From IMG/VR virus record IMGVR_UViG_3300017991_000009, positions 1 to 64,000 of that record: 64,000 nucleotides of DNA. One strand, written 5' to 3'. Below the pieces are notes generated by a model, which saw only the letters and a list, made by a program, of their open reading frames with translations, had not been told where the DNA came from and did no database searches. The position numbers and the translations under genes are program-made. Below, piece by piece: positions 33,585 to 64,000 of this stretch. The first letter of the stretch is position 1. Each line of letters opens with the position of its first letter. Source of the DNA: a virus.

Positions 33585-33792
33585 TCGAACCAAGCTCATC
33601 GACGTGAGCGAGGAGATCGAGGTATCCCCAATTAGGCTGGCCGGTCAGGTTACCCGGTGGCAAGCAATCGCTACTATCGATAAGGAGGCGGGTGACGATC
33701 ATCTTGTCGGTGTTGGTTACCGGCCTGTTAAAGCAATCACTAGTTGGTTGGACGAAAAAGTTACGGCGAAGGTGCGATCATGCCTGCAGTGA
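33544..33792 (+). CDS. Hypothetical protein
   Basis: Fills the gap between coupled genes; GAGG RBS. Confidence 0.5.
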   Translation: MMAKVKVVFQVWDDRTKLIDVSEEIEVSPIRLAGQVTRWQAIATIDKEAGDDHLVGVGYRPVKAITSWLDEKVTAKVRSCLQ

Positions 33793-34259
33793 GAATCAAG
33801 CATAGGGATGTCACCGCGGCCCGTGACCAACTCTACGACGAGATCTTGGATGAGGGGTGCTACTGCCCCTGCTGTGATCGGTACGCACGGGCCTACGCCA
33901 GGGCAATCAACCACACGATGGCGCGGGCTCTAATCTGGTTGTGCAGGGAGTACCGGCGCACGGGTGAATGGGTCGACGTGCCGAAGACCGCGCCGCGGTG
34001 GCTAGTTAGGTCCAACCAGCTTCCTACCTTGAAGTATTGGGGCTTGGTGCAGCGGAAGCCCAACAACGACCCTGCCAAGAAGTGTAGTGGGCTATGGCGC
34101 CCTACTCCGCGTGGCCGCAGGTTCGCTGGGAGCAGGATCAGGCTGAGGAAGAAAGCATTGGTCTACAACGATCGCGTGCTTGAGTACCAGGGAGAGTTTA
34201 TCTCGGTTGTCGATGCACTTGCACACCACTTCGACTACCGCGAGTTGTGGGAGGGGTAG
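33780..34259 (+). CDS. Zn-ribbon/winged-helix phage protein
   Basis: CPCC..Y.R; LKYWGLV..GLWRPTPRG..F. Confidence 0.65.
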   Translation: MPAVRIKHRDVTAARDQLYDEILDEGCYCPCCDRYARAYARAINHTMARALIWLCREYRRTGEWVDVPKTAPRWLVRSNQLPTLKYWGLVQRKPNNDPAKKCSGLWRPTPRGRRFAGSRIRLRKKALVYNDRVLEYQGEFISVVDALAHHFDYRELWEG

Positions 34260-55166: not shown

Positions 55167-56837
55167 ATGACCACAAAACGCAAACGTGCTGCCCGCACGG
55201 CTAAAACCCCGGCGGACGCCGATCGTATCCAACTAGAGGCGATCGACAAGAAGGGGCAGCGGCGGTCGGTTACTCTGAAGGCCACGATAATTGACGGGCC
55301 CGAGGATGAGCCTCCGCGCCTGGACGAGGGGCCCACTAGCGCCGCTGACGAGCGAGACCCCTTCAAGAGCCAGTCGTTGGGTAAGCACCGCATCATTGAT
55401 CCACCCTACAACCAGCGGAACCTCCTCACCCTGAAGGAGAAGTCCAACGTGTTAACGTCGTGCGTGAACAGCATGGTGACTAACACAGTGGGCTTTGGCT
55501 GGCGACTCAGGGAACGCATCATGCCCGATGATCTCCGGCGGAAGTTCGAGTCCGAGATCATACGGGAGAAAATGTCCCTCCTCACGTGGCTTGAATCGGT
55601 GCATCCTACCGAGTCGTTTACCGCGTTGCGTGAGCAGGCGAAGGATGACCAGCACTCCTGCGGCAACGGTTACCTCGAGTTGATCGAGAATAAGGCAGGA
55701 CGCCTGGTCGGACTGAACCACGTACACGGCCACTGCATCAGGTTGTGTGAACGGCAGAAACGCGCCGTGAAGGTAGACGTACCGCGCATCCGGCCGGATA
55801 AGAACTTCATGATCGAGGACGTCGCTATGTGGCACCGCTTCAGGAAGTTCGTCATGATGGTCGGCACCAAGCCTCTCTTCTTTAAAGAGGCAGGCGATCC
55901 AAGGATGTTGGATCGCTACACCGGGGAGTACGGCAAGGACATCCCGTTCAACTGCCGCGCTACCTCACTCCTCCACTTTAAGAACTACTTCGCGGCATAT
56001 GCCTACGGCCTCCCTGTCTGGATCGGAGACACCCTCTCCGTAGTGGGGAGCCGCGAGGCGGAGGAAGTAAACTACGCCACTCTCCGCAACAACTCGATCC
56101 CATCGATGTTTGTCATAGTGGAGAACGGGTCACTTACCCAGGAATCGGTTGACCGCCTGCGGGAGTGGACGGAGCAGCAAATCCAGCGGTCGGCGAACCG
56201 ATCGAAGTTCATCATCCTGGAGGGTGAGACTTCTGACGAGGGGATCATTAATCCCACCGACTTCAAGATCAAAGTCGAGCCCTTGAAGCAACTCCAGCAA
56301 GAGGACCAACTCTACCAGGAACTCGACAAGAACAACCGAGACAAGGTGCGGCAGGCTTTCCGTCTGCCGCCCATCTTTGTTGGTCGGGCCGACGACTACA
56401 CTAGGGCCACGGCCGACACCAGCCGCGATATCGCAGACGAGCAGGTGTTTGCCCCGGAGCGGAACGGTGATGACTTCAAGACCAACCGCTTCATCCTCTT
56501 GCCCCTGGGTTCTCGGTTCCACGTGTTCCGATCGAACCATCCGAACATCACTGACGACATCGAGTTGATCCGCCTGATGGGCATCGCCGAGAAGTCTGGC
56601 GGTATGACCCCGCGGCGTGCCGACCGAATCATCCGTGATGTGTTCGGTGATGATATAGGGCCGATGCCCACCGGCATTGACCTGGACAAGCCCTTTACTA
56701 TCACGTTCGCCGAGGCTCAGCAGGGCGGTACACTTGCGCAAGGCAACGCGAACGCAGACCGAGTTATTGACGGCCTGCTCAACTTGCGTGAGAAGATAGA
56801 GGAGGAGCTTGAAGAAAGGTTGTACCACGAGGAGTAA
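55167..56837 (+). CDS. Portal protein (PBSX/HK97 family)
   Basis: IIDPPY, GNGYLE, LLHFK.Y...YGLP.W, N..IP, VRQAFRLPP.FVG..DYTRATA, EQVF.PE. Confidence 0.9.
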   Translation: MTTKRKRAARTAKTPADADRIQLEAIDKKGQRRSVTLKATIIDGPEDEPPRLDEGPTSAADERDPFKSQSLGKHRIIDPPYNQRNLLTLKEKSNVLTSCVNSMVTNTVGFGWRLRERIMPDDLRRKFESEIIREKMSLLTWLESVHPTESFTALREQAKDDQHSCGNGYLELIENKAGRLVGLNHVHGHCIRLCERQKRAVKVDVPRIRPDKNFMIEDVAMWHRFRKFVMMVGTKPLFFKEAGDPRMLDRYTGEYGKDIPFNCRATSLLHFKNYFAAYAYGLPVWIGDTLSVVGSREAEEVNYATLRNNSIPSMFVIVENGSLTQESVDRLREWTEQQIQRSANRSKFIILEGETSDEGIINPTDFKIKVEPLKQLQQEDQLYQELDKNNRDKVRQAFRLPPIFVGRADDYTRATADTSRDIADEQVFAPERNGDDFKTNRFILLPLGSRFHVFRSNHPNITDDIELIRLMGIAEKSGGMTPRRADRIIRDVFGDDIGPMPTGIDLDKPFTITFAEAQQGGTLAQGNANADRVIDGLLNLREKIEEELEERLYHEE

Positions 56838-57536: not shown

Positions 57537-58544
57537 GTGGTAGGTCTGAATCCCACAAACCTCACCACCGAGGAGTTGTGTGACCTGGGGAGTGCAATTG
57601 ACTCCACGTTGTGTGTCGTGCTCAAGGTCGCGCCTCGGAGGGAGTCTGAGATCATCGAAGGTCGAATTGCCTCGACCATCGGTAGAGCTTGGAAGTCCAC
57701 GGCGAATGCCGCGACCAACTCCGGCATAGCCAAACTCCTCAAGGGCCCTTTCACTGACCGGCGGATCACCTCCTTCCTGAAGTCCTTGGGTGTGAAGCTG
57801 AAGACCCCCCTCACCAAGACCCAGATCAAGGTGATAGAGAAACGGCTCCAGTCTATCTGGAGGATCGCTAAGAAGTGGGCGGCGAAGGAGGCCAAGATCT
57901 CCTTCTCCTTCTCTCACGTTGATCAGCGAGCAGTCGCCGCGATCAACAGGCACCAGGTGTTCTGGGTAGGTGACTTCTACAACGACAAGTTGTCCCGCAG
58001 GATACGGGCCGTGTCTGAGGATGTCCTCCTTCGGCGCGGCCTCTCGCATAAAGAGGCGGGGGCGGTGCTAAGGAGAACTCTTCGCAGGGAGTTCGGTATC
58101 CTCCCTGGCGGTAAGACTAGGTTCGCGCCCACCGTCCCCGCTCGCTATGCGGGAAACCCCGATCTCTACTTCCGACAGGTAGCGTCAACCGCGGCGCACC
58201 AGTCGAGGACCTTCGGCACGTTGACCGCGTTCAGCGAGGCGGGGGTAACCAGCTACCAGCTTATCAACCCGGATGACGAGCGTACCGGGCAGATCTGTCA
58301 ACAGATGAGCGGGCAGGTTTTCTCCGTACAGACGGGGGTGCGGCAGATGAATCGCATCCTTGGAGCGAAGGACCCGAAGGACGTGAAGAAGATCGCCCCG
58401 TGGTTGTCAGGTGACGACATCGAGGCGGCCCTCGCGGGTGCACGCACAGGCAGCCAGCAGGCTACGGATAGGCTTGCCGCTGCAGGTGCGATCCTTCCGC
58501 CGTTCCACGCTTTGTGCAGGACAGATATTGTGATTCCGAGCTAG
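57537..58544 (+). CDS. Head morphogenesis protein (Mu gpF/SPP1 gp7 family)
   Basis: DERT..IC..M.G.VF and PPFHALCRT. Confidence 0.88.
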   Translation: MVGLNPTNLTTEELCDLGSAIDSTLCVVLKVAPRRESEIIEGRIASTIGRAWKSTANAATNSGIAKLLKGPFTDRRITSFLKSLGVKLKTPLTKTQIKVIEKRLQSIWRIAKKWAAKEAKISFSFSHVDQRAVAAINRHQVFWVGDFYNDKLSRRIRAVSEDVLLRRGLSHKEAGAVLRRTLRREFGILPGGKTRFAPTVPARYAGNPDLYFRQVASTAAHQSRTFGTLTAFSEAGVTSYQLINPDDERTGQICQQMSGQVFSVQTGVRQMNRILGAKDPKDVKKIAPWLSGDDIEAALAGARTGSQQATDRLAAAGAILPPFHALCRTDIVIPS

Positions 58545-58546
58545 TC

Positions 58547-58888
58547 ATGAAGAAGCGGACTACGATACAAACTCTCATCTTTGACAAGGCAAAGTTTCCT
58601 ACGAGGGACTCGGTACGTAAGTGGATCAAGGCTCATGGATTTCACATCATGCGCCAAAAGGAGAAAGTGACGAAGCCGGGTATTGACGAAACCGCTGGTA
58701 GCTTTAGAGTGCGCCAGAGGGCGCCTAGTGATTTCGTGCGAGGGTCGTTCAGAACGATTAATATTACTGATGGAGTGAAAGCTGTTATCGGAAGGCTGAA
58801 GTCTAGCGTGAAGAAAACGGGCGTAGTACTTGAAGTAAAAGGCCCCTATGACTTGCTGGATATATTGGAGGAGTTATGTGGCGATTAG
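58547..58888 (+). CDS. Hypothetical protein
   Basis: IQTLIFDK.KF...KWIK.HGF..DET..SFRVRQ pattern. Confidence 0.6.
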   Translation: MKKRTTIQTLIFDKAKFPTRDSVRKWIKAHGFHIMRQKEKVTKPGIDETAGSFRVRQRAPSDFVRGSFRTINITDGVKAVIGRLKSSVKKTGVVLEVKGPYDLLDILEELCGD

Positions 58889-59241
58889 AGAAAGCGTTCA
58901 AATTTGAGGCAGCACATTCCCTGCCTTATCACCGTGGTAAGTGTAAGCGGGTACACGGCCACTCTTGGCATGGGAAGGTAGTCCTTGAGCGTAACGATCT
59001 TACCGAGGATGGCCCCGAGGCGGGAATGGTCACTGACTTTGGGAAGGTAAAGGAGGTGATTGACCAGGTGTTAGACCAGTACCTCGATCACCTGTTCCTC
59101 AACGAATCTACTGGGATGCGCAACCCCACCTCGGAGCTACTTGCGAAGTGGCTCTACGATCACTTGAAGGTTCGCCTGCCGTACCTCGCGGCGATCGTCA
59201 TCCAGGAGACGGACTCGAGCACCTGCGAGTACCGACCGTAG
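58876..59241 (+). CDS. queD: 6-carboxytetrahydropterin synthase
   Basis: FEAAH.L, CKRVHGHSW, GMV.DF, LDH.FLN, NPTSE.LA.W. Confidence 0.95.
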   Translation: MWRLEKAFKFEAAHSLPYHRGKCKRVHGHSWHGKVVLERNDLTEDGPEAGMVTDFGKVKEVIDQVLDQYLDHLFLNESTGMRNPTSELLAKWLYDHLKVRLPYLAAIVIQETDSSTCEYRP

Positions 59242-59244
59242 GCG

Positions 59245-59847
59245 ATGCTGGGGAAGAGGTACATAGTCAAGGAGATCTTCTACTCCCTACAGGGAGAGGG
59301 GATGCGTGCAGGCGAGGCTAGTGTTTTTGTCCGCTTCGCTGGTTGTAACCTTAACTGTAGGAAGGAGACGCATGGTTTCGACTGTGACACCGACTTCAAG
59401 GGCGGTGTGAAACTGACCGCGGAAGGGGTACTCGAGGCAATCAAGAACGTCAACGAGCACTGTCGCTGGATCGTGCTGACCGGCGGGGAGCCCGCCGTGC
59501 AGTTGGATTCGGCACTCGTTTCTGTTCTGAAGGCCGCTGGCTATAGCCTGGCGATCGAAACCAATGGTACAAAGGCCTTGCCCGAGGGGCTTGACTGGAT
59601 ATCAGTTTCGCCGAAGCCCGGTACCTGCCTGGAGCAAACGAGAGCGATGGAGGTGAAATATGTCCTACGTGCTGGTGACCTTTTGCCTACGCGGTCAGAG
59701 ATTAAGGCCGCTTACTATCTATTGAGCCCCGCCTTTGAGGGAAACACTCTGCCCCAGGATAACCTGCGGCACTGCATCAACCTCTGCCTGGGTAACCCCA
59801 AGTGGATCCTTTCTGTCCAACTACACAAGCTAATAGGTGTGAGATGA
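59245..59847 (+). CDS. queE: 7-carboxy-7-deazaguanine synthase (radical SAM)
   Basis: EIFYSLQGEG, FVRFAGCNL.C...CDTDF, LTGGEP, IETNGT, SPK, S.QLHK. Confidence 0.95.
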   Translation: MLGKRYIVKEIFYSLQGEGMRAGEASVFVRFAGCNLNCRKETHGFDCDTDFKGGVKLTAEGVLEAIKNVNEHCRWIVLTGGEPAVQLDSALVSVLKAAGYSLAIETNGTKALPEGLDWISVSPKPGTCLEQTRAMEVKYVLRAGDLLPTRSEIKAAYYLLSPAFEGNTLPQDNLRHCINLCLGNPKWILSVQLHKLIGVR

Positions 59848-60401
59848 GTGAAGATCTAGTACGAGAGATGATTCTAGCGATTGGTGACGACCCCGACCGA
59901 GAAGGTCTGAAGGAAACACCCAAGCGGGTGGTGAAGTCGTGGGCTGAGTTGTACTCAGGCTACAACGCGGATGCGGCTGAGTACTGCAAGGTGTTCTCCG
60001 CGACCTATGATCAAGTAGTGGTGTTCAAGGACATCGACTACTTTTCAATGTGCGAACACCACATGCTGCCTTTCTTCGGGAAGGTGTATATCGCCTACTT
60101 GCCTGCAACCAACGGCAAGCAGGGGGCCAAGGTGATCGGGGCGTCTAAGATGGCCCGAATCGTGAACGTGTTTGCACGCAGGTTGCAGATACAGGAGCAG
60201 ATGACTCAACAGGTCGCGGAAGCGATCCAGGAGATGATTCACCCGAGGGGGTTGGCAGTCATCGTGGATGGGATGCACCTTTGCATGATGGCAAGAGGCG
60301 TGAGTCAGCAACACGCCACGATGCGAACCAGTGCCATGTGGGGCCTCTATCGAGAGGACCACAGGGCGCAGGCTGAAGCCCTTCGGTTGATGGGGTTTTA
60401 G
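59844..60401 (+). CDS. folE: GTP cyclohydrolase I
   Basis: REGL.ETPKRV, SMCEHHMLPFFG, RRLQIQE, HLCMMARGV. Confidence 0.96.
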   Translation: MSEDLVREMILAIGDDPDREGLKETPKRVVKSWAELYSGYNADAAEYCKVFSATYDQVVVFKDIDYFSMCEHHMLPFFGKVYIAYLPATNGKQGAKVIGASKMARIVNVFARRLQIQEQMTQQVAEAIQEMIHPRGLAVIVDGMHLCMMARGVSQQHATMRTSAMWGLYREDHRAQAEALRLMGF

Positions 60402-60402
60402 G

Positions 60403-61146
60403 ATGCCAAAGATCATCCTTGCCCCGCACCTAGATGACGAGGTGATCGGCTGCTACTCCATCCTCGGAGAAGTGGACCGAATCGTGTACTTCACAAGCGA
60501 CTATCGTGAAGAGAACCTGCCCGATGATCGCTACGAGAAGTTCAAGGGCACACTGCCCCACGGCATTGCTGAGGCCGACACGGTATTCCTCCCAAGCAGG
60601 TTCGACCACCATCCCTTTCACCGATATGTCCGCAACGTCGGGCTCGGGCTTCCTGGGATCAAGTGGTTCTATAGCGTTGAAATGAACGTACCGTGGTTAG
60701 AAGAGGAAGCGGACCCTGACGGGAAGTGGGCCATGATGGAACGGCTTTACCCGCAGGAGGTACCACGGCTCGTTGATCATAAGTATCGGCTGTTCAAGAG
60801 TATCAAGCCGTTCGACGAAGTGATCCGGGCTAGCGTGAAGATCGTCATTGAAAGGTGGCACCGCTGGCCCGCTGCACCGGAGAAGGTCGCGTTCTTGCGC
60901 AACCTCCACCGCCACTTGTTCCACGTCAACGTGCGCGTTCAGCAGTTCCAAGACGACCGCGACCTTGAATACTTCCTGTTGAGGGAAGAGGTGGGAGAGA
61001 TTGTCAACGGGTTCAAGTGGGAAGAACGCACCAGTTGTGAAATGCTAGCCCTTAGCGTAAAGCGAACATTGGAAATGAGGTACCTCGACCGAATGGTTCA
61101 GGTATCAGTCTATGAGGACAACGAAAACGGATGCGAGGTGGAGTGA
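60403..61146 (+). CDS. PIG-L/LmbE-type deacetylase fused to a DpdL-like T-fold domain
   Basis: N-terminal ILAPHLDDEVIGC and DHHPFH; C-terminal HRWP.AP..V.FLRNLHRHLFH, DRDLEY, SCEMLA, V.EDNENG. Confidence 0.7.
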   Translation: MPKIILAPHLDDEVIGCYSILGEVDRIVYFTSDYREENLPDDRYEKFKGTLPHGIAEADTVFLPSRFDHHPFHRYVRNVGLGLPGIKWFYSVEMNVPWLEEEADPDGKWAMMERLYPQEVPRLVDHKYRLFKSIKPFDEVIRASVKIVIERWHRWPAAPEKVAFLRNLHRHLFHVNVRVQQFQDDRDLEYFLLREEVGEIVNGFKWEERTSCEMLALSVKRTLEMRYLDRMVQVSVYEDNENGCEVE

Positions 61147-61880
61147 TGAAACACGTAGGCGAAAACAAACACGTAGGCGAAAACATCGTCGATATAGCCA
61201 ATGAGGGCCGCAAGCTCAACCTGTTTCAGGTTGAGGTAACCAACATATGCAACGGCAAGTGTGAATACTGCCCACAGTCGACAATGAAACGAAAGGCGGG
61301 GTATATCTCGCCTATGGTGTACCGCTCGGCGCTTCACGCAATGGAGAACGACGCCTTCCACCTGCATGGGCACGGGGAAACCTTGATGCACAAGCAGGTG
61401 GTTGAGATGGTGGACCTTGCCACCAGCTTGGGTAAGGAGGTCGGGTTTTCAACCAACGGCTCCCTTCTCACGCAGGAGAAACTCGATGCGTTGGCCCAGG
61501 CCGGGTTGAAGTGGCTCCGTCTGCACGTCGGCCCGTTCGGTGTGCGGCTCAACCAGTTCAAGGTACCCGAAGGCTTGATCGCCACCGAGCACCGGGTGGG
61601 CGATAACGGTCCCGAGGAGGTTGAGGACAAAGGGATGACTTCGTGGGGTGGTTGGGTGGATGGTGTCGAGGAAACAGGAGGGGCTGACCGCTGCTCCTTT
61701 TTAGGGTACCCCAACGGCAAGGAGTGGCGGTGCTTGCTCTACGACGGAACGGTAACTTTGTGTTGCGTTGACTACGAAGGTGGTGCTACACAAAGTGACA
61801 TCTGTAGCAAGTGCCGTGGGTTTGTTTTCAGGAGCCCTCGCGATTGGGGAAACTATGACGGCGAAGGCTGGGAATTCTAG
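61146..61880 (+). CDS. Radical SAM protein with Twitch/SPASM-like C-terminus
   Basis: CNGKCEYC, GHGE.LMH, STNGSLL, C...YDG.V.LCC.DY, C.KC. Confidence 0.88.
   Translation: MKHVGENKHVGENIVDIANEGRKLNLFQVEVTNICNGKCEYCPQSTMKRKAGYISPMVYRSALHAMENDAFHLHGHGETLMHKQVVEMVDLATSLGKEVGFSTNGSLLTQEKLDALAQAGLKWLRLHVGPFGVRLNQFKVPEGLIATEHRVGDNGPEEVEDKGMTSWGGWVDGVEETGGADRCSFLGYPNGKEWRCLLYDGTVTLCCVDYEGGATQSDICSKCRGFVFRSPRDWGNYDGEGWEF
61149..61184 (+). repeat. 18-bp tandem duplication
   Basis: AAACACGTAGGCGAAAAC twice (KHVGEN twice). Confidence 0.85.
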
Positions 61881-61889
61881 GAGCGAATC

Positions 61890-62330
61890 ATGAATACGAA
61901 AGTGCAAGCGGCAAAGCATGTGATTGCGGACGCGATAGCGAAACACGATCACCGAATCTACGTGGCGTACTCAGGCGGCAAGGACAGCCAGGCTCTCCTG
62001 CGGTTGGTGCGCTCGGTCAACCCCCACGCCCTGGTCGTGCACAATGGCTACGAGGGTGAATCGGTCGAAGACGAGTTCGGCATCTTGAAGGTCAAGCCCC
62101 CCAAGGCAGAGACCGTGCCGAAGTTCATGGAGGCGGTTGACCTTGGTGCGCAGTTCGATGCAACGCGCCGCGCCGAGAACAAGCTGGTGTGTATCGACGG
62201 CAAGGAGATCCACCGCAGCAACATGACCGGCCCCTACACCGCAAAAGGTTACTTCGGGCTGGAAGTCTACTTCCCTCTCTGGGACTGGTCAGACGAGGAA
62301 GTGCTGACCTTCTTGGAGGTGAGCGAATGA
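61890..62330 (+). CDS. Minimal PAPS-reductase-family PP-loop protein
   Basis: VAYSGGKDS, ATRRAE, FPLWDWSDEEV. Confidence 0.8.
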   Translation: MNTKVQAAKHVIADAIAKHDHRIYVAYSGGKDSQALLRLVRSVNPHALVVHNGYEGESVEDEFGILKVKPPKAETVPKFMEAVDLGAQFDATRRAENKLVCIDGKEIHRSNMTGPYTAKGYFGLEVYFPLWDWSDEEVLTFLEVSE

Positions 62331-62857
62331 AGGTTGACCGCTGCCACTACAGTTATGACGGCGAGGGAGATCTAATCGGTACCAAGACCTTCTTTTGTCA
62401 CTACCCAGGTGAGACCTCAATCGAGCAGTTTGACTTGAGCAAGGTAGGGGCGGTCTTTGTCAATACGGACACCCTTGACGAGACCCTTGGAGGGTGGATC
62501 GACCGTTGCGGTAAGATAGTGACGGTTGAGGTAGACGGGGAGGTGTTGAACACGACGCCCGCCGTAACCATCGACCTTGATGGTGCGAGGCTGTTCGTTG
62601 TCGTGGATCGCTTTTTCCCGCACCTCGTCAACTTCACTGGGTTCGTAAAGGTTAGAGTAATGGCCGAAGCTAACCTCCCTGAGTGCTTGAGGCTGGCAAA
62701 TACCTACGCGATGCAAGGGCGGCAAGTCCTCCTGATGCCCGAGTTTACTGACATCGGGCACAAGGAGGTAGGTGAGGTCATGATGGGGATCTACGATGAG
62801 GTCCACCCGCTGGTGCGGGTCATGCCTCCAGTTCAGTTCCTCTTGGGGGTGAAGTGA
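62327..62857 (+). CDS. Degenerate QueE-like paralogue lacking the Fe-S motif
   Basis: HYSYDGEGDLIGTKTFFCHYPG aligns with QueE FYSLQGEGMRAGEASVFVRFAG; C-terminus PPVQFLLGVK vs VQLHKLIGVR. Confidence 0.6.
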   Translation: MKVDRCHYSYDGEGDLIGTKTFFCHYPGETSIEQFDLSKVGAVFVNTDTLDETLGGWIDRCGKIVTVEVDGEVLNTTPAVTIDLDGARLFVVVDRFFPHLVNFTGFVKVRVMAEANLPECLRLANTYAMQGRQVLLMPEFTDIGHKEVGEVMMGIYDEVHPLVRVMPPVQFLLGVK

Positions 62858-63924
62858 TGCTCTACTATCTGCCTATCGAACCGCTTGAGGAGAGGTACAC
62901 CGAGCAGTGGTATCGGTGGTTCCCGGAAGAGTTCAAGCGGCAAGGGATTCGCTACCAGACTATCGACGGGGAGACCCTCGTTGATGAGGTTCAGGTAGGG
63001 ACGTTTCTGGACGTGAACTCAACGCTCTATTACAAGGCAGAGCAACTCAGGCGTGTCGCCAAACTCTTTCACCATGGGTTGATCGAGAGTGGTGACAAGT
63101 TCTTTGTGGCGGATGTCGAGTTTTGGGGTATCGAAAGTATCAGGTACCTCGCCACCCTCAACAAGGTGGACGTGGGGATCCTCGGGTTCTGTCACGCAGG
63201 GAGTTACACGGTTGAGGATTTCATGGAACCGTGCGCACCCTTCGCTCACCACTACGAGACCGCTTGGGGATCGGTCTTTGATATGATCTTCGTTGGGAGC
63301 GAGTACCATAAGCGTATGCTGGTGGAAAAGCGGAAGCTGCCCGCTGACAAGCTCATGGTTACCGGCAACCCCTACGATGCGTCAGAAGTGCCTAAGCTGA
63401 ACCTCCCTGTGAACCACACACGGGTCATCCTCACCAATCGCCCTGACCCTGAGAAACGTCCCGAGGTCACACTGAAGGTTTTCGCTCAACTTAAGAAACA
63501 ACACCCCTCTTGGGACTTTCTGGTGACCACTGGCCGCAAACAGTGGGGCTCGGGTGCCGTTAGAAACACCGCCCTTGCCCTGCGGGACCAGGGTGTGATC
63601 ACCATTCACGAAGGTATCTCAAAAGGCGAGTACCTCGAACTGCTAGCAAGTAGCCGCGTCATGACAGGGAACACCATTGAGGAGAACTTCGGGTATTGCG
63701 TCCTGGAGGCCCTTTTGGTTGACACCATCCCTGTTGTGCCGAACGACTTTAGCCACCCTGAACTACTCCAGAATGACGAAAGGTGCCTCTTTGACACTAC
63801 AGGTCGTCAGATGACCTTGATCGAACGTGCAATAGAGGATCCTTTTTCCGTTCTAGGGTATAGTAAGCGGTACGAGGATTCGCTTGCGGCGATAGTGCTA
63901 AGTATCAAGGAGGGCCGACCATGA
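62854..63924 (+). CDS. GT-B glycosyltransferase (phage DNA-modification type)
   Basis: IEPLEERYT.QW, HAGSY..EDF, R.DPEK.P, EENFGY..LEA, P.VPN.FSHPE. Confidence 0.85.
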   Translation: MMLYYLPIEPLEERYTEQWYRWFPEEFKRQGIRYQTIDGETLVDEVQVGTFLDVNSTLYYKAEQLRRVAKLFHHGLIESGDKFFVADVEFWGIESIRYLATLNKVDVGILGFCHAGSYTVEDFMEPCAPFAHHYETAWGSVFDMIFVGSEYHKRMLVEKRKLPADKLMVTGNPYDASEVPKLNLPVNHTRVILTNRPDPEKRPEVTLKVFAQLKKQHPSWDFLVTTGRKQWGSGAVRNTALALRDQGVITIHEGISKGEYLELLASSRVMTGNTIEENFGYCVLEALLVDTIPVVPNDFSHPELLQNDERCLFDTTGRQMTLIERAIEDPFSVLGYSKRYEDSLAAIVLSIKEGRP

Positions 63925-64000
63925 AGTTTTATTTCGTAGCAGGAGCTAACGACTCCGTGAACGTACTGTTGGACGAAAAGGTCCGGTCTATCCTCGTGTC
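63921..64000 (+). CDS. Partial CDS truncated by the window; possibly a TGT-like DpdA
   Basis: ATGA coupling and AAGGAGG RBS; MKFYFVAGANDSVNVLLDEKVRSILV; identity guessed only from context and a TIM-barrel-like first strand. Confidence 0.35.
   Translation, partial: MKFYFVAGANDSVNVLLDEKVRSILV

Follow-up and report, generated by a model that had tools for sequence, protein, structure and literature searches.

A putative pathway to glycosylated 7-deazaguanine within the head-assembly operon of a virus

The IMG/VR record IMGVR_UViG_3300017991_000009 is the genome of an uncultured phage, rated complete, with 95,166 bp and direct terminal repeats. The window considered here is its first 64 kb (positions 1 to 64,000), and the remainder of the genome, past the window edge at 64,000, was also analysed. 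From 58,876 to 64,000 the window holds a single, tightly coupled operon on the + strand, with intergenic gaps of -16 to +9 nt and several ATGA-type overlaps. Its genes encode enzymes of 7-deazaguanine synthesis, a set of predicted tailoring enzymes that includes a glycosyltransferase, and the start of a DNA transglycosylase. It is moderately probable, judging from the sequences and their relatives, that this is a late-expressed operon for a hypermodified, glycosylated 7-deazaguanine in virion DNA. The base would be made by a modular pathway and would probably carry an amino sugar.

Base pathway and tailoring genes

The conversion of GTP to 7-carboxy-7-deazaguanine (CDG) by FolE, QueD and QueE is established. 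All three enzymes are predicted from the first genes of the operon. QueD, the 6-carboxytetrahydropterin synthase (58876-59241), matches PF01242 (1.5e-32) and TIGR03367 (93.1 bits against a cut-off of 89.25), and its catalytic CxxxHGH motif is intact (CKRVHGH). QueE, the 7-carboxy-7-deazaguanine synthase (59245-59847), belongs to the radical S-adenosylmethionine (SAM) enzymes and has both the cysteines C34, C38 and C47 and the GGEP motif. Its best match is TIGR04508 (2.5e-51), with a score under the NCBIfam equivalog cut-offs even though QueE models come out on top. FolE, GTP cyclohydrolase I (59802-60401; likely start ATG at 59844, overlapping the QueE stop), matches PF01227 (1.1e-64) and TIGR00063 (205 bits against a cut-off of 181.6). 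With these features, the three proteins can be assigned to the CDG pathway.

QueC (PF06508) has no match at E<=1 across the whole 95,166-bp genome, in a search for which 14 control genomes were positive. Since QueC is absent, the pathway does not proceed to preQ0. A preliminary description of the window had reported the coupled queD-queE-folE genes and the lack of QueC. The coupled genes were found again, all on the + strand, and the downstream sequence extends the absence of QueC to the whole genome.

The next gene (60403-61146) encodes a 247-residue fusion of a predicted LmbE/PIG-L-type de-N-acetylase to a T-fold domain. The protein has no Pfam match above threshold. Its first half carries the motifs APHLDDE and HPFH (pattern APHxDDE, HPxH), and its second half carries LRNLHRHLF. 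The residues H9, D11, D12, E13, H70, H73, H153, H169, R170, H171 and E213 are invariant across 28 fusion homologues, and the two-domain architecture is found in at least 45 metagenome protein clusters. An AlphaFold (AF2) model of the fusion has a predicted local distance difference test score (pLDDT) of 94 and splits cleanly at residues 138/139. In fold searches with this model, residues 1-138 resemble de-N-acetylases of the LmbE family, with BC1534 (Z 12.2) and BshB (Z 11.9) both aligned over 137 residues, and also match teicoplanin and diacetylchitobiose deacetylases. Residues 139-247 resemble QueD/PTPS at Z 11-12.

The C-terminal half of the fusion also matches DpdL of phages phiST and ACP17 by tblastn. 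The motif LxxxHRHxF, in place of CxxxHGH, is the signature of DpdL, the proposed CDG decarboxylase (Cui et al., PMC10516641). From motif and model, the T-fold half is assigned to DpdL, and the N-terminal half to the LmbE fold with the predicted metal-binding motifs (A/P)HxDD and HxxH. A scan of bacterial genome contigs gave weak generic LmbE matches only.

The glycosyltransferase (GT) gene lies near the end of the operon (62854-63924). Its product matches Glycos_transf_1 (PF00534) at 37.7 bits against a cut-off of 26.4. Among 30 homologues, R196 and K201 are invariant and E277 is near-invariant, and E277-x7-E285 forms an EX7E motif. By these features it would belong to the GT4-type GT-B glycosyltransferases. 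The nearest Atlas clusters are all viral, and there is no significant PDB sequence match.

The pairing of a GT4 enzyme with an LmbE-family deacetylase is the pattern of MshA/MshB, BshA/BshB and PIG-A/PIG-L. In each pair, glycosyl transfer by a retaining GT4 enzyme precedes the action of a metal-dependent de-N-acetylase, and BshB ranks with the best fold matches to the N-terminal domain. The acceptors of MshA, BshA and PIG-A are inositol phosphate, malate and phosphatidylinositol, whereas the context in the window points to a deazapurine. The deacetylase domain of the window is also shorter, with 138 residues compared with about 230 in MshB, BshB and PIG-L.

It could be argued that neither protein is a sugar enzyme. 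The LmbE-like domain may be an amidohydrolase acting on the base or on a pterin, and the GT-B-like protein may bind a nucleotide or base without any glycosyl transfer. The LmbE match consists of a fold (Z 12) and two motifs, while PF02585 gives E 0.012 and 16.5 bits, below its cut-off of 28.2, and covers the motif region only. The missing PDB match of the GT would fit as well. However, the GT keeps the GT4 hallmarks and scores above its Pfam cut-off, and every characterised protein among the top fold matches of the N-terminal domain is an N-acetylglucosamine (GlcNAc)-type de-N-acetylase; the others are BC1534, a putative deacetylase, and TT1542, which is uncharacterised. In addition, a gene for a nucleoside diphosphate (NDP)-sugar epimerase/dehydratase lies between the deacetylase and GT genes of the related locus L029 (10555-11547). 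A role outside sugar chemistry is considered very improbable.

Three more genes lie between the fusion and the GT. The first (61131-61880; likely start 61146) encodes a radical SAM protein (PF04055, 1.1e-12). Its best PDB match is BtrN (1.5e-9, over residues 27-128 only), and the next is BlsE, a cytosylglucuronate decarboxylase. The substrates of BtrN and BlsE are sugars or cyclitols. Across 14 homologues, C40, C44 and C47 are invariant, as are C188, C211, C212, C225 and C228. This pattern, CxxxCxxC followed by five C-terminal cysteines, fits a BtrN-like twitch domain with an auxiliary cluster.

The second gene (61890-62330) encodes a PP-loop ATP pyrophosphatase of 146 residues. It has the motifs SGGKDS, DGTRxxE and P-x-x-DW and matches PF01507 at 25.3 bits against a cut-off of 22.5. 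The family profile finds CysD (1zun) at 2e-8 over its full length (profile positions 4-153). FAD synthase and PAPS reductase come next, and QueC is matched at no better than E 0.37. The protein is accordingly placed by sequence in the CysD/PAPS-reductase/FAD-synthase branch.

The third gene (62327-62857) encodes a QueE-like protein (QEL) of 176 residues. An open reading frame start at 62189 is too early, and the ATGA overlap at 62327 fits instead. The frame 62189-62857 was also considered as a frameshifted continuation of the PP-loop gene, and this was rejected, as the two are separate coupled genes in the window and in the related loci L012 and L023.

A QEL profile built from 7 homologues and searched against 1.8 billion representatives found 52 clusters at E<1e-10, and the matches in its weak tail are full-length proteins called QueE by NCBIfam. 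Comparison of QEL with QueE by hhalign aligned the first 25 residues only, and the full-library profile search decided homology instead. No cysteine is invariant in the 7 homologues, and the combination of a [4Fe-4S] cysteine triad with GGEP was not found in them. Without a conserved cysteine, QEL cannot hold a radical SAM cluster. By its sequence relationships QEL is a real QueE paralogue and not a radical SAM enzyme. The preliminary description had named the deacetylase::T-fold fusion and the radical SAM, PAPS-reductase-like, QueE-like and GT-B proteins, and all of these calls were correct.

The PP-loop and QEL genes are gained or lost as a pair among relatives. They are fused into one 351-residue protein in L014 and L020, and fused in further clusters too. 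One possible role for the pair is to replace QueC. The base would then be ADG, preQ0 or another CDG amide, with the GT and the LmbE domain decorating its side chain, or with a role in salvage or activation. The PP-loop protein and QueC do share the PP-loop superfamily, and a QueE-paralogue partner would be expected to bind CDG or 6-carboxytetrahydropterin (CPH4). Some QueC homologues act as CDG amide synthetases, those of the roseomycin type making amides from adenylated CDG (10.64898/2026.04.15.718813), and a QueC variant of Campylobacter phages makes ADG (PMC10516641). Yet the relatives nearest to the window protein are those of the CysD branch rather than QueC, and the protein is small. The pair is also missing from the close relatives L013 and L015-L019, which keep DpdL, GT and DpdA, and this points to an optional tailoring step. 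Finally, retention of the carboxyl group would make DpdL superfluous. Replacement of QueC is regarded as quite unlikely.

Transglycosylase and head genes

DpdA-type enzymes exchange guanine in DNA for a 7-deazaguanine base, which is established. The last gene of the operon begins at 63921 and leaves the window at 64000. In the preliminary description it was a partial open reading frame at the window end. In the full genome it turns out to be dpdA, which runs to position 65027 (L002 5922-7028) and encodes 368 residues.

The protein matches phrog_887 (1.4e-19), which is annotated 'queuine tRNA-ribosyltransferase' and represents the CAjan/iggy/phiSM type. A family alignment of the window protein and 10 relatives was compared by hhalign with CAjan DpdA, an enzyme studied by experiment, giving 99.6% probability and E 4.5e-24 over 217 columns. 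The residues D53 (LDSGAF), D89, H183 and D205 (SVDSxSW) are invariant in the 11 sequences and align with the same motifs in CAjan DpdA. In the DpdA of S. Montevideo, Asp95, Asp130, His181 and Asp256 are active-site residues that include the general acid/base, the base-binding Asp, the His and the nucleophile (PMC10164549). The four invariant residues probably correspond to these, an assignment made by motif resemblance through the CAjan alignment and not by direct alignment. Together, phrog_887 and the CAjan comparison place the window transglycosylase as DpdA1-like.

Other searches with this protein were less informative. Pfam TGT has no match to it, tblastn with it against cultured phages gave no match, and an IMG/VR pattern scan with the single window sequence found no relative. 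A PDB profile search with the DpdA alignment returned nothing meaningful. The AF2 model has a pLDDT of 58.7, and Foldseek gave generic TIM barrels with TGT at rank 20, so the fold was not confirmed.

Elsewhere in the window, a 171-residue protein adjoining an SbcC-like gene (33744-34259; phrog_2693) gives a weak Pfam TGT match at 33819-33917. This match is merely a CxCxxC motif, within a zinc-type CYCPCC, and was discarded.

The operon lies in a long run of + strand genes in the order large terminase, portal, MuF-like protein, deazaguanine cluster, XkdF-type prohead protease, scaffold and major capsid protein. The portal protein (55167-56837; phrog_12 at 1.1e-27) and the MuF-like minor head protein (57537-58544; phrog_13868 at 2.5e-17, and phrog_2841, a minor head protein) form the upstream flank. 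The protease, scaffold and major capsid protein genes are located downstream of dpdA. The position right after portal and MuF, first noted from the window, is thereby confirmed. Between the MuF-like gene and queD lies a gene for a small protein with no assigned function (58514-58888; likely start ATG at 58547), which has no family match in profile searches.

In the virus studied here, the DpdA and protease frames (genome 63921-66009) overlap by 8 nt and are in different frames. In three relatives they are fused. L012 (8004-9620) has DpdA fused in frame to the XkdF protease in a protein of 538 residues. L015 (8515-10548) has a 677-residue DpdA-protease fusion that includes a homologue of the small protein described above, which is 56% identical to residues 446-538 of this frame (L015 9850-10130). 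The presence of this homologue inside the fusion suggests that the module moves around within the head locus. In L013 (12263-17470), a frame of 1,735 residues combines DpdA and the XkdF protease with an ATP-dependent DNA ligase into which a LAGLIDADG intein is inserted, as recognised by Pfam.

These fusions, together with the operon position, suggest that DpdA may enter the procapsid. The preliminary description had proposed that modification is coupled to packaging. That proposal stands as a suggestion, drawn solely from the late-operon placement and the in-frame fusions of the three relatives.

The window (positions 1-64000) has no tRNA genes according to ARAGORN, and its long open reading frames are nearly all on the + strand.

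The module in related and cultured phages

Comparative genomics is the main evidence for a glycosylated deazaguanine. The cluster itself has no blastn match in 50,697 phage records. The complete operon, with its gene order unchanged, is also present in one IMG/VR contig, L012, whose proteins are 42-64% identical to those of the window. Synteny at this degree of divergence indicates that every operon gene is maintained. In 23 related viral contigs and in seven lineages of cultured phages, the GT is always found within a deazaguanine cluster and in the company of DpdL or the deacetylase. When IMG/VR was scanned with the fusion alignment, 18 viral loci were recovered. Each has a GT beside an LmbE-type gene, and DpdA was seen in 15. 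The loci that bear the radical SAM gene have DpdL and GT in every case (6/6).

The slot between these genes can be filled in different ways. A SAM methyltransferase replaces the PP-loop/QEL pair in L015-L018 (L015 6911-7450). In L024 (7457-9054), the tailoring slot holds an additional radical SAM gene and a methyltransferase gene.

Among cultured phages, homologues of the GT are found in 18 of the 50,697 records. Six of these loci were inspected (X1, BCSR5, ACP17, BUCT-ZZ01, Phosso and PA5oct), leaving out BUDD and other PA5oct-like records, and each of the six has the GT and DpdL together in a deazaguanine cluster. In BUDD, the GT, the deacetylase and DpdL all give tblastn matches. The GTs of the Xanthomonas phages X1 and BUDD and of the Burkholderia phage BCSR5 are 41-44% identical to that of the window. 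In X1 and BCSR5, separate genes for the PP-loop protein, LmbE-like deacetylase, GT, DpdA and DpdL form a single run, and ACP17, PA5oct, BUCT-ZZ01 and Phosso have the GT and DpdL only. PA5oct DNA resists G-dependent restriction enzymes and is reported to contain a modified G of unspecified chemistry (PMC12191111).

A conserved protein of 140-155 residues (MAKIG.E.EG...) is encoded directly upstream of the GT in X1 (L004 9674-10105), BCSR5 (L007 9523-9990) and a 190-kb viral contig (L028 13044-13466). These three proteins have no significant link to QueE or QEL.

In the cultured GT phages the genes are part of replication modules with a DpdA3-type enzyme (phrog_10773, present in ACP17 and X1), whereas in the window they are part of a head module. 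The cultured phages also lack the BtrN-like radical SAM protein and a clear QueE paralogue, and no base structure has been published for them. The DpdA1-type enzyme, the head-assembly placement and the in-frame DpdA-protease fusions of relatives are particular to the present lineage.

DpdL can also be found without a GT, as in phiST and RHph_I1_18. In phiST, a Cellulophaga phage, the DNA contains plain 7-deazaguanine (dDG), made by FolE, QueD, QueE, DpdL and DpdA3 (Cui, Hutinet et al. 2023, PMC10516641). This system has in common with the window a CDG pathway without QueC, a DpdL with LxxxHRHxF, and a DNA transglycosylase. It has no GT, deacetylase, PP-loop protein, QueE paralogue or second radical SAM protein. 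Its transglycosylase is of the DpdA3 kind (phrog_20335) rather than DpdA1-like (phrog_887), and its DpdL, unlike that of the window, is not fused to a deacetylase.

The example of phiST raises the possibility that only known dDG, or dCDG, is made here as well. The GT, deacetylase, radical SAM and PP-loop proteins would then act on a virion protein, a host envelope glycan or a soluble metabolite, and would merely be co-located with the base pathway. After all, phiST obtains dDG without a GT, and placement in a head-assembly operon makes glycosylation of a capsid protein conceivable. Against this, the GT accompanies DpdL and DpdA in unrelated contexts, namely among the replication genes of jumbo myoviruses and among the head genes of the present virus. 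The deacetylase::DpdL and PP-loop::QEL fusions would also be hard to explain without a shared substrate. On balance, mere co-location is thought to be unlikely.

Proposed pathway and its meaning

Under the favoured reading, in which the operon makes a glycosylated 7-deazaguanine, FolE, QueD and QueE would convert GTP to CDG. The DpdL domain would process CDG, perhaps by the decarboxylation to 7-deazaguanine proposed by Cui et al. The GT4 enzyme would move a hexose onto the deazaguanine moiety; the likeliest sugar is an N-acetylhexosamine, with a UDP-sugar as its donor. Fused as it is to a base-binding T-fold, the LmbE domain would strip the acetyl group and leave a free amine. Such an order, transfer followed by deacetylation, is that of mycothiol, bacillithiol and glycosylphosphatidylinositol synthesis.

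Further steps may differ between lineages. The BtrN-like radical SAM protein may edit the sugar further. The PP-loop enzyme may carry out an ATP-dependent adenylylation or ligation, guided by a QueE shell with a deazaguanine or pterin as its bound ligand. The radical SAM protein, the PP-loop pair or a methyltransferase would in this way tailor the product of each lineage. DpdA would exchange guanine in DNA for the base, and the sugar may be added before or after this insertion. The sugar, the atom of attachment and the order of steps are the more conjectural parts of this scheme.

The preliminary description had already proposed a further decorated CDG or 7-deazaguanine, for example by transfer of an N-acetyl sugar and subsequent deacetylation. 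The general idea is partly supported, strongly so by synteny and by the deacetylase::DpdL and PP-loop::QEL fusions, which physically tie tailoring enzymes to the base pathway. The specific sequence of steps receives indirect support, as GT4 and LmbE genes recur together in the deazaguanine clusters of many phages, with the deacetylase fused to DpdL.

A chemical precedent is offered by huimycin, in which HuiG, a GT4-type enzyme, puts GlcNAc on the 2-amino group of 7-deazaguanine (PMC7439116). The huimycin/dapiramicin pathways, like the window operon, combine a FolE/QueD/QueE core with a GT4-type enzyme, and the SAM methyltransferase of huimycin has a parallel in the L015-type variants. Unlike the proposed base, these are soluble metabolites of actinomycetes, built on preQ0 with QueC and with the sugar at N2, and involve neither DpdA nor incorporation into DNA.

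Several points weigh against a glycosylated base. The support comes from synteny and fusions, and none of it from the chemistry of any GT-bearing phage. The donor and acceptor of the GT cannot be read from its sequence, and the LmbE domain is short (138 residues) and scores under its Pfam cut-off. The activity of DpdL has never been demonstrated, phiST included, and a heterologous test was negative (Cui et al., PMC10516641). The dDG of phiST, formed without a GT, means that DpdL alone does not imply a sugar. Moreover, 7-deazaguanine has no obvious O-acceptor, so that the sugar would have to be attached at N2, the site used in huimycin, or through a C-glycoside, unless DpdL yields a different product. 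All phage hypermodifications that we know of lie in the major groove, and a sugar at N2 would sit in the minor groove.

To our knowledge, the sugar-bearing DNA bases described so far are all pyrimidines. Examples are the glucosylated 5-hydroxymethylcytosine (5hmC) of T4 and the glycans on 5hmC or 5-hydroxycytosine, where phage GT-B enzymes likewise decorate a modified base and allow evasion of host nucleases (10.1101/2023.12.21.572611, PMC13326640). These pyrimidines have a hydroxyl acceptor, in contrast to the purine proposed here. Guanine or purines are not mentioned in 10.1101/2023.12.21.572611, and no description of a sugar-bearing deazaguanine in DNA came up in a literature search.

A broader claim can be made for the cultured phages as well. 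The virion DNA of the present lineage and of cultured phages with the module, such as X1, BUDD, BCSR5, ACP17 and PA5oct, would carry a sugar-bearing 7-deazaguanine, with an amino sugar in those lineages that have LmbE. No purine in DNA was known to carry a sugar before, and the pathway to this one would be modular, its tailoring enzymes (deacetylase, radical SAM protein, PP-loop ligase and methyltransferase) differing from lineage to lineage. In the present lineage the transglycosylase may also enter the procapsid by way of a fusion to the prohead protease. The chances of this combined claim being right or wrong are judged to be evenly balanced.

If the reading is right, sugar-bearing 7-deazaguanine would represent a class of DNA hypermodification not seen before. 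It would bear on how phages evade restriction and CRISPR, on type IV and glycosylase-type defences, and on the sequencing of such genomes. Cui et al. (2023, PMC10516641) suspected a lack of further enzymes when DpdL and DpdA together yielded no product in E. coli. The conserved GT is an obvious candidate for the enzyme missing from that test. Because cultured phages with the module exist, the prediction is directly testable.

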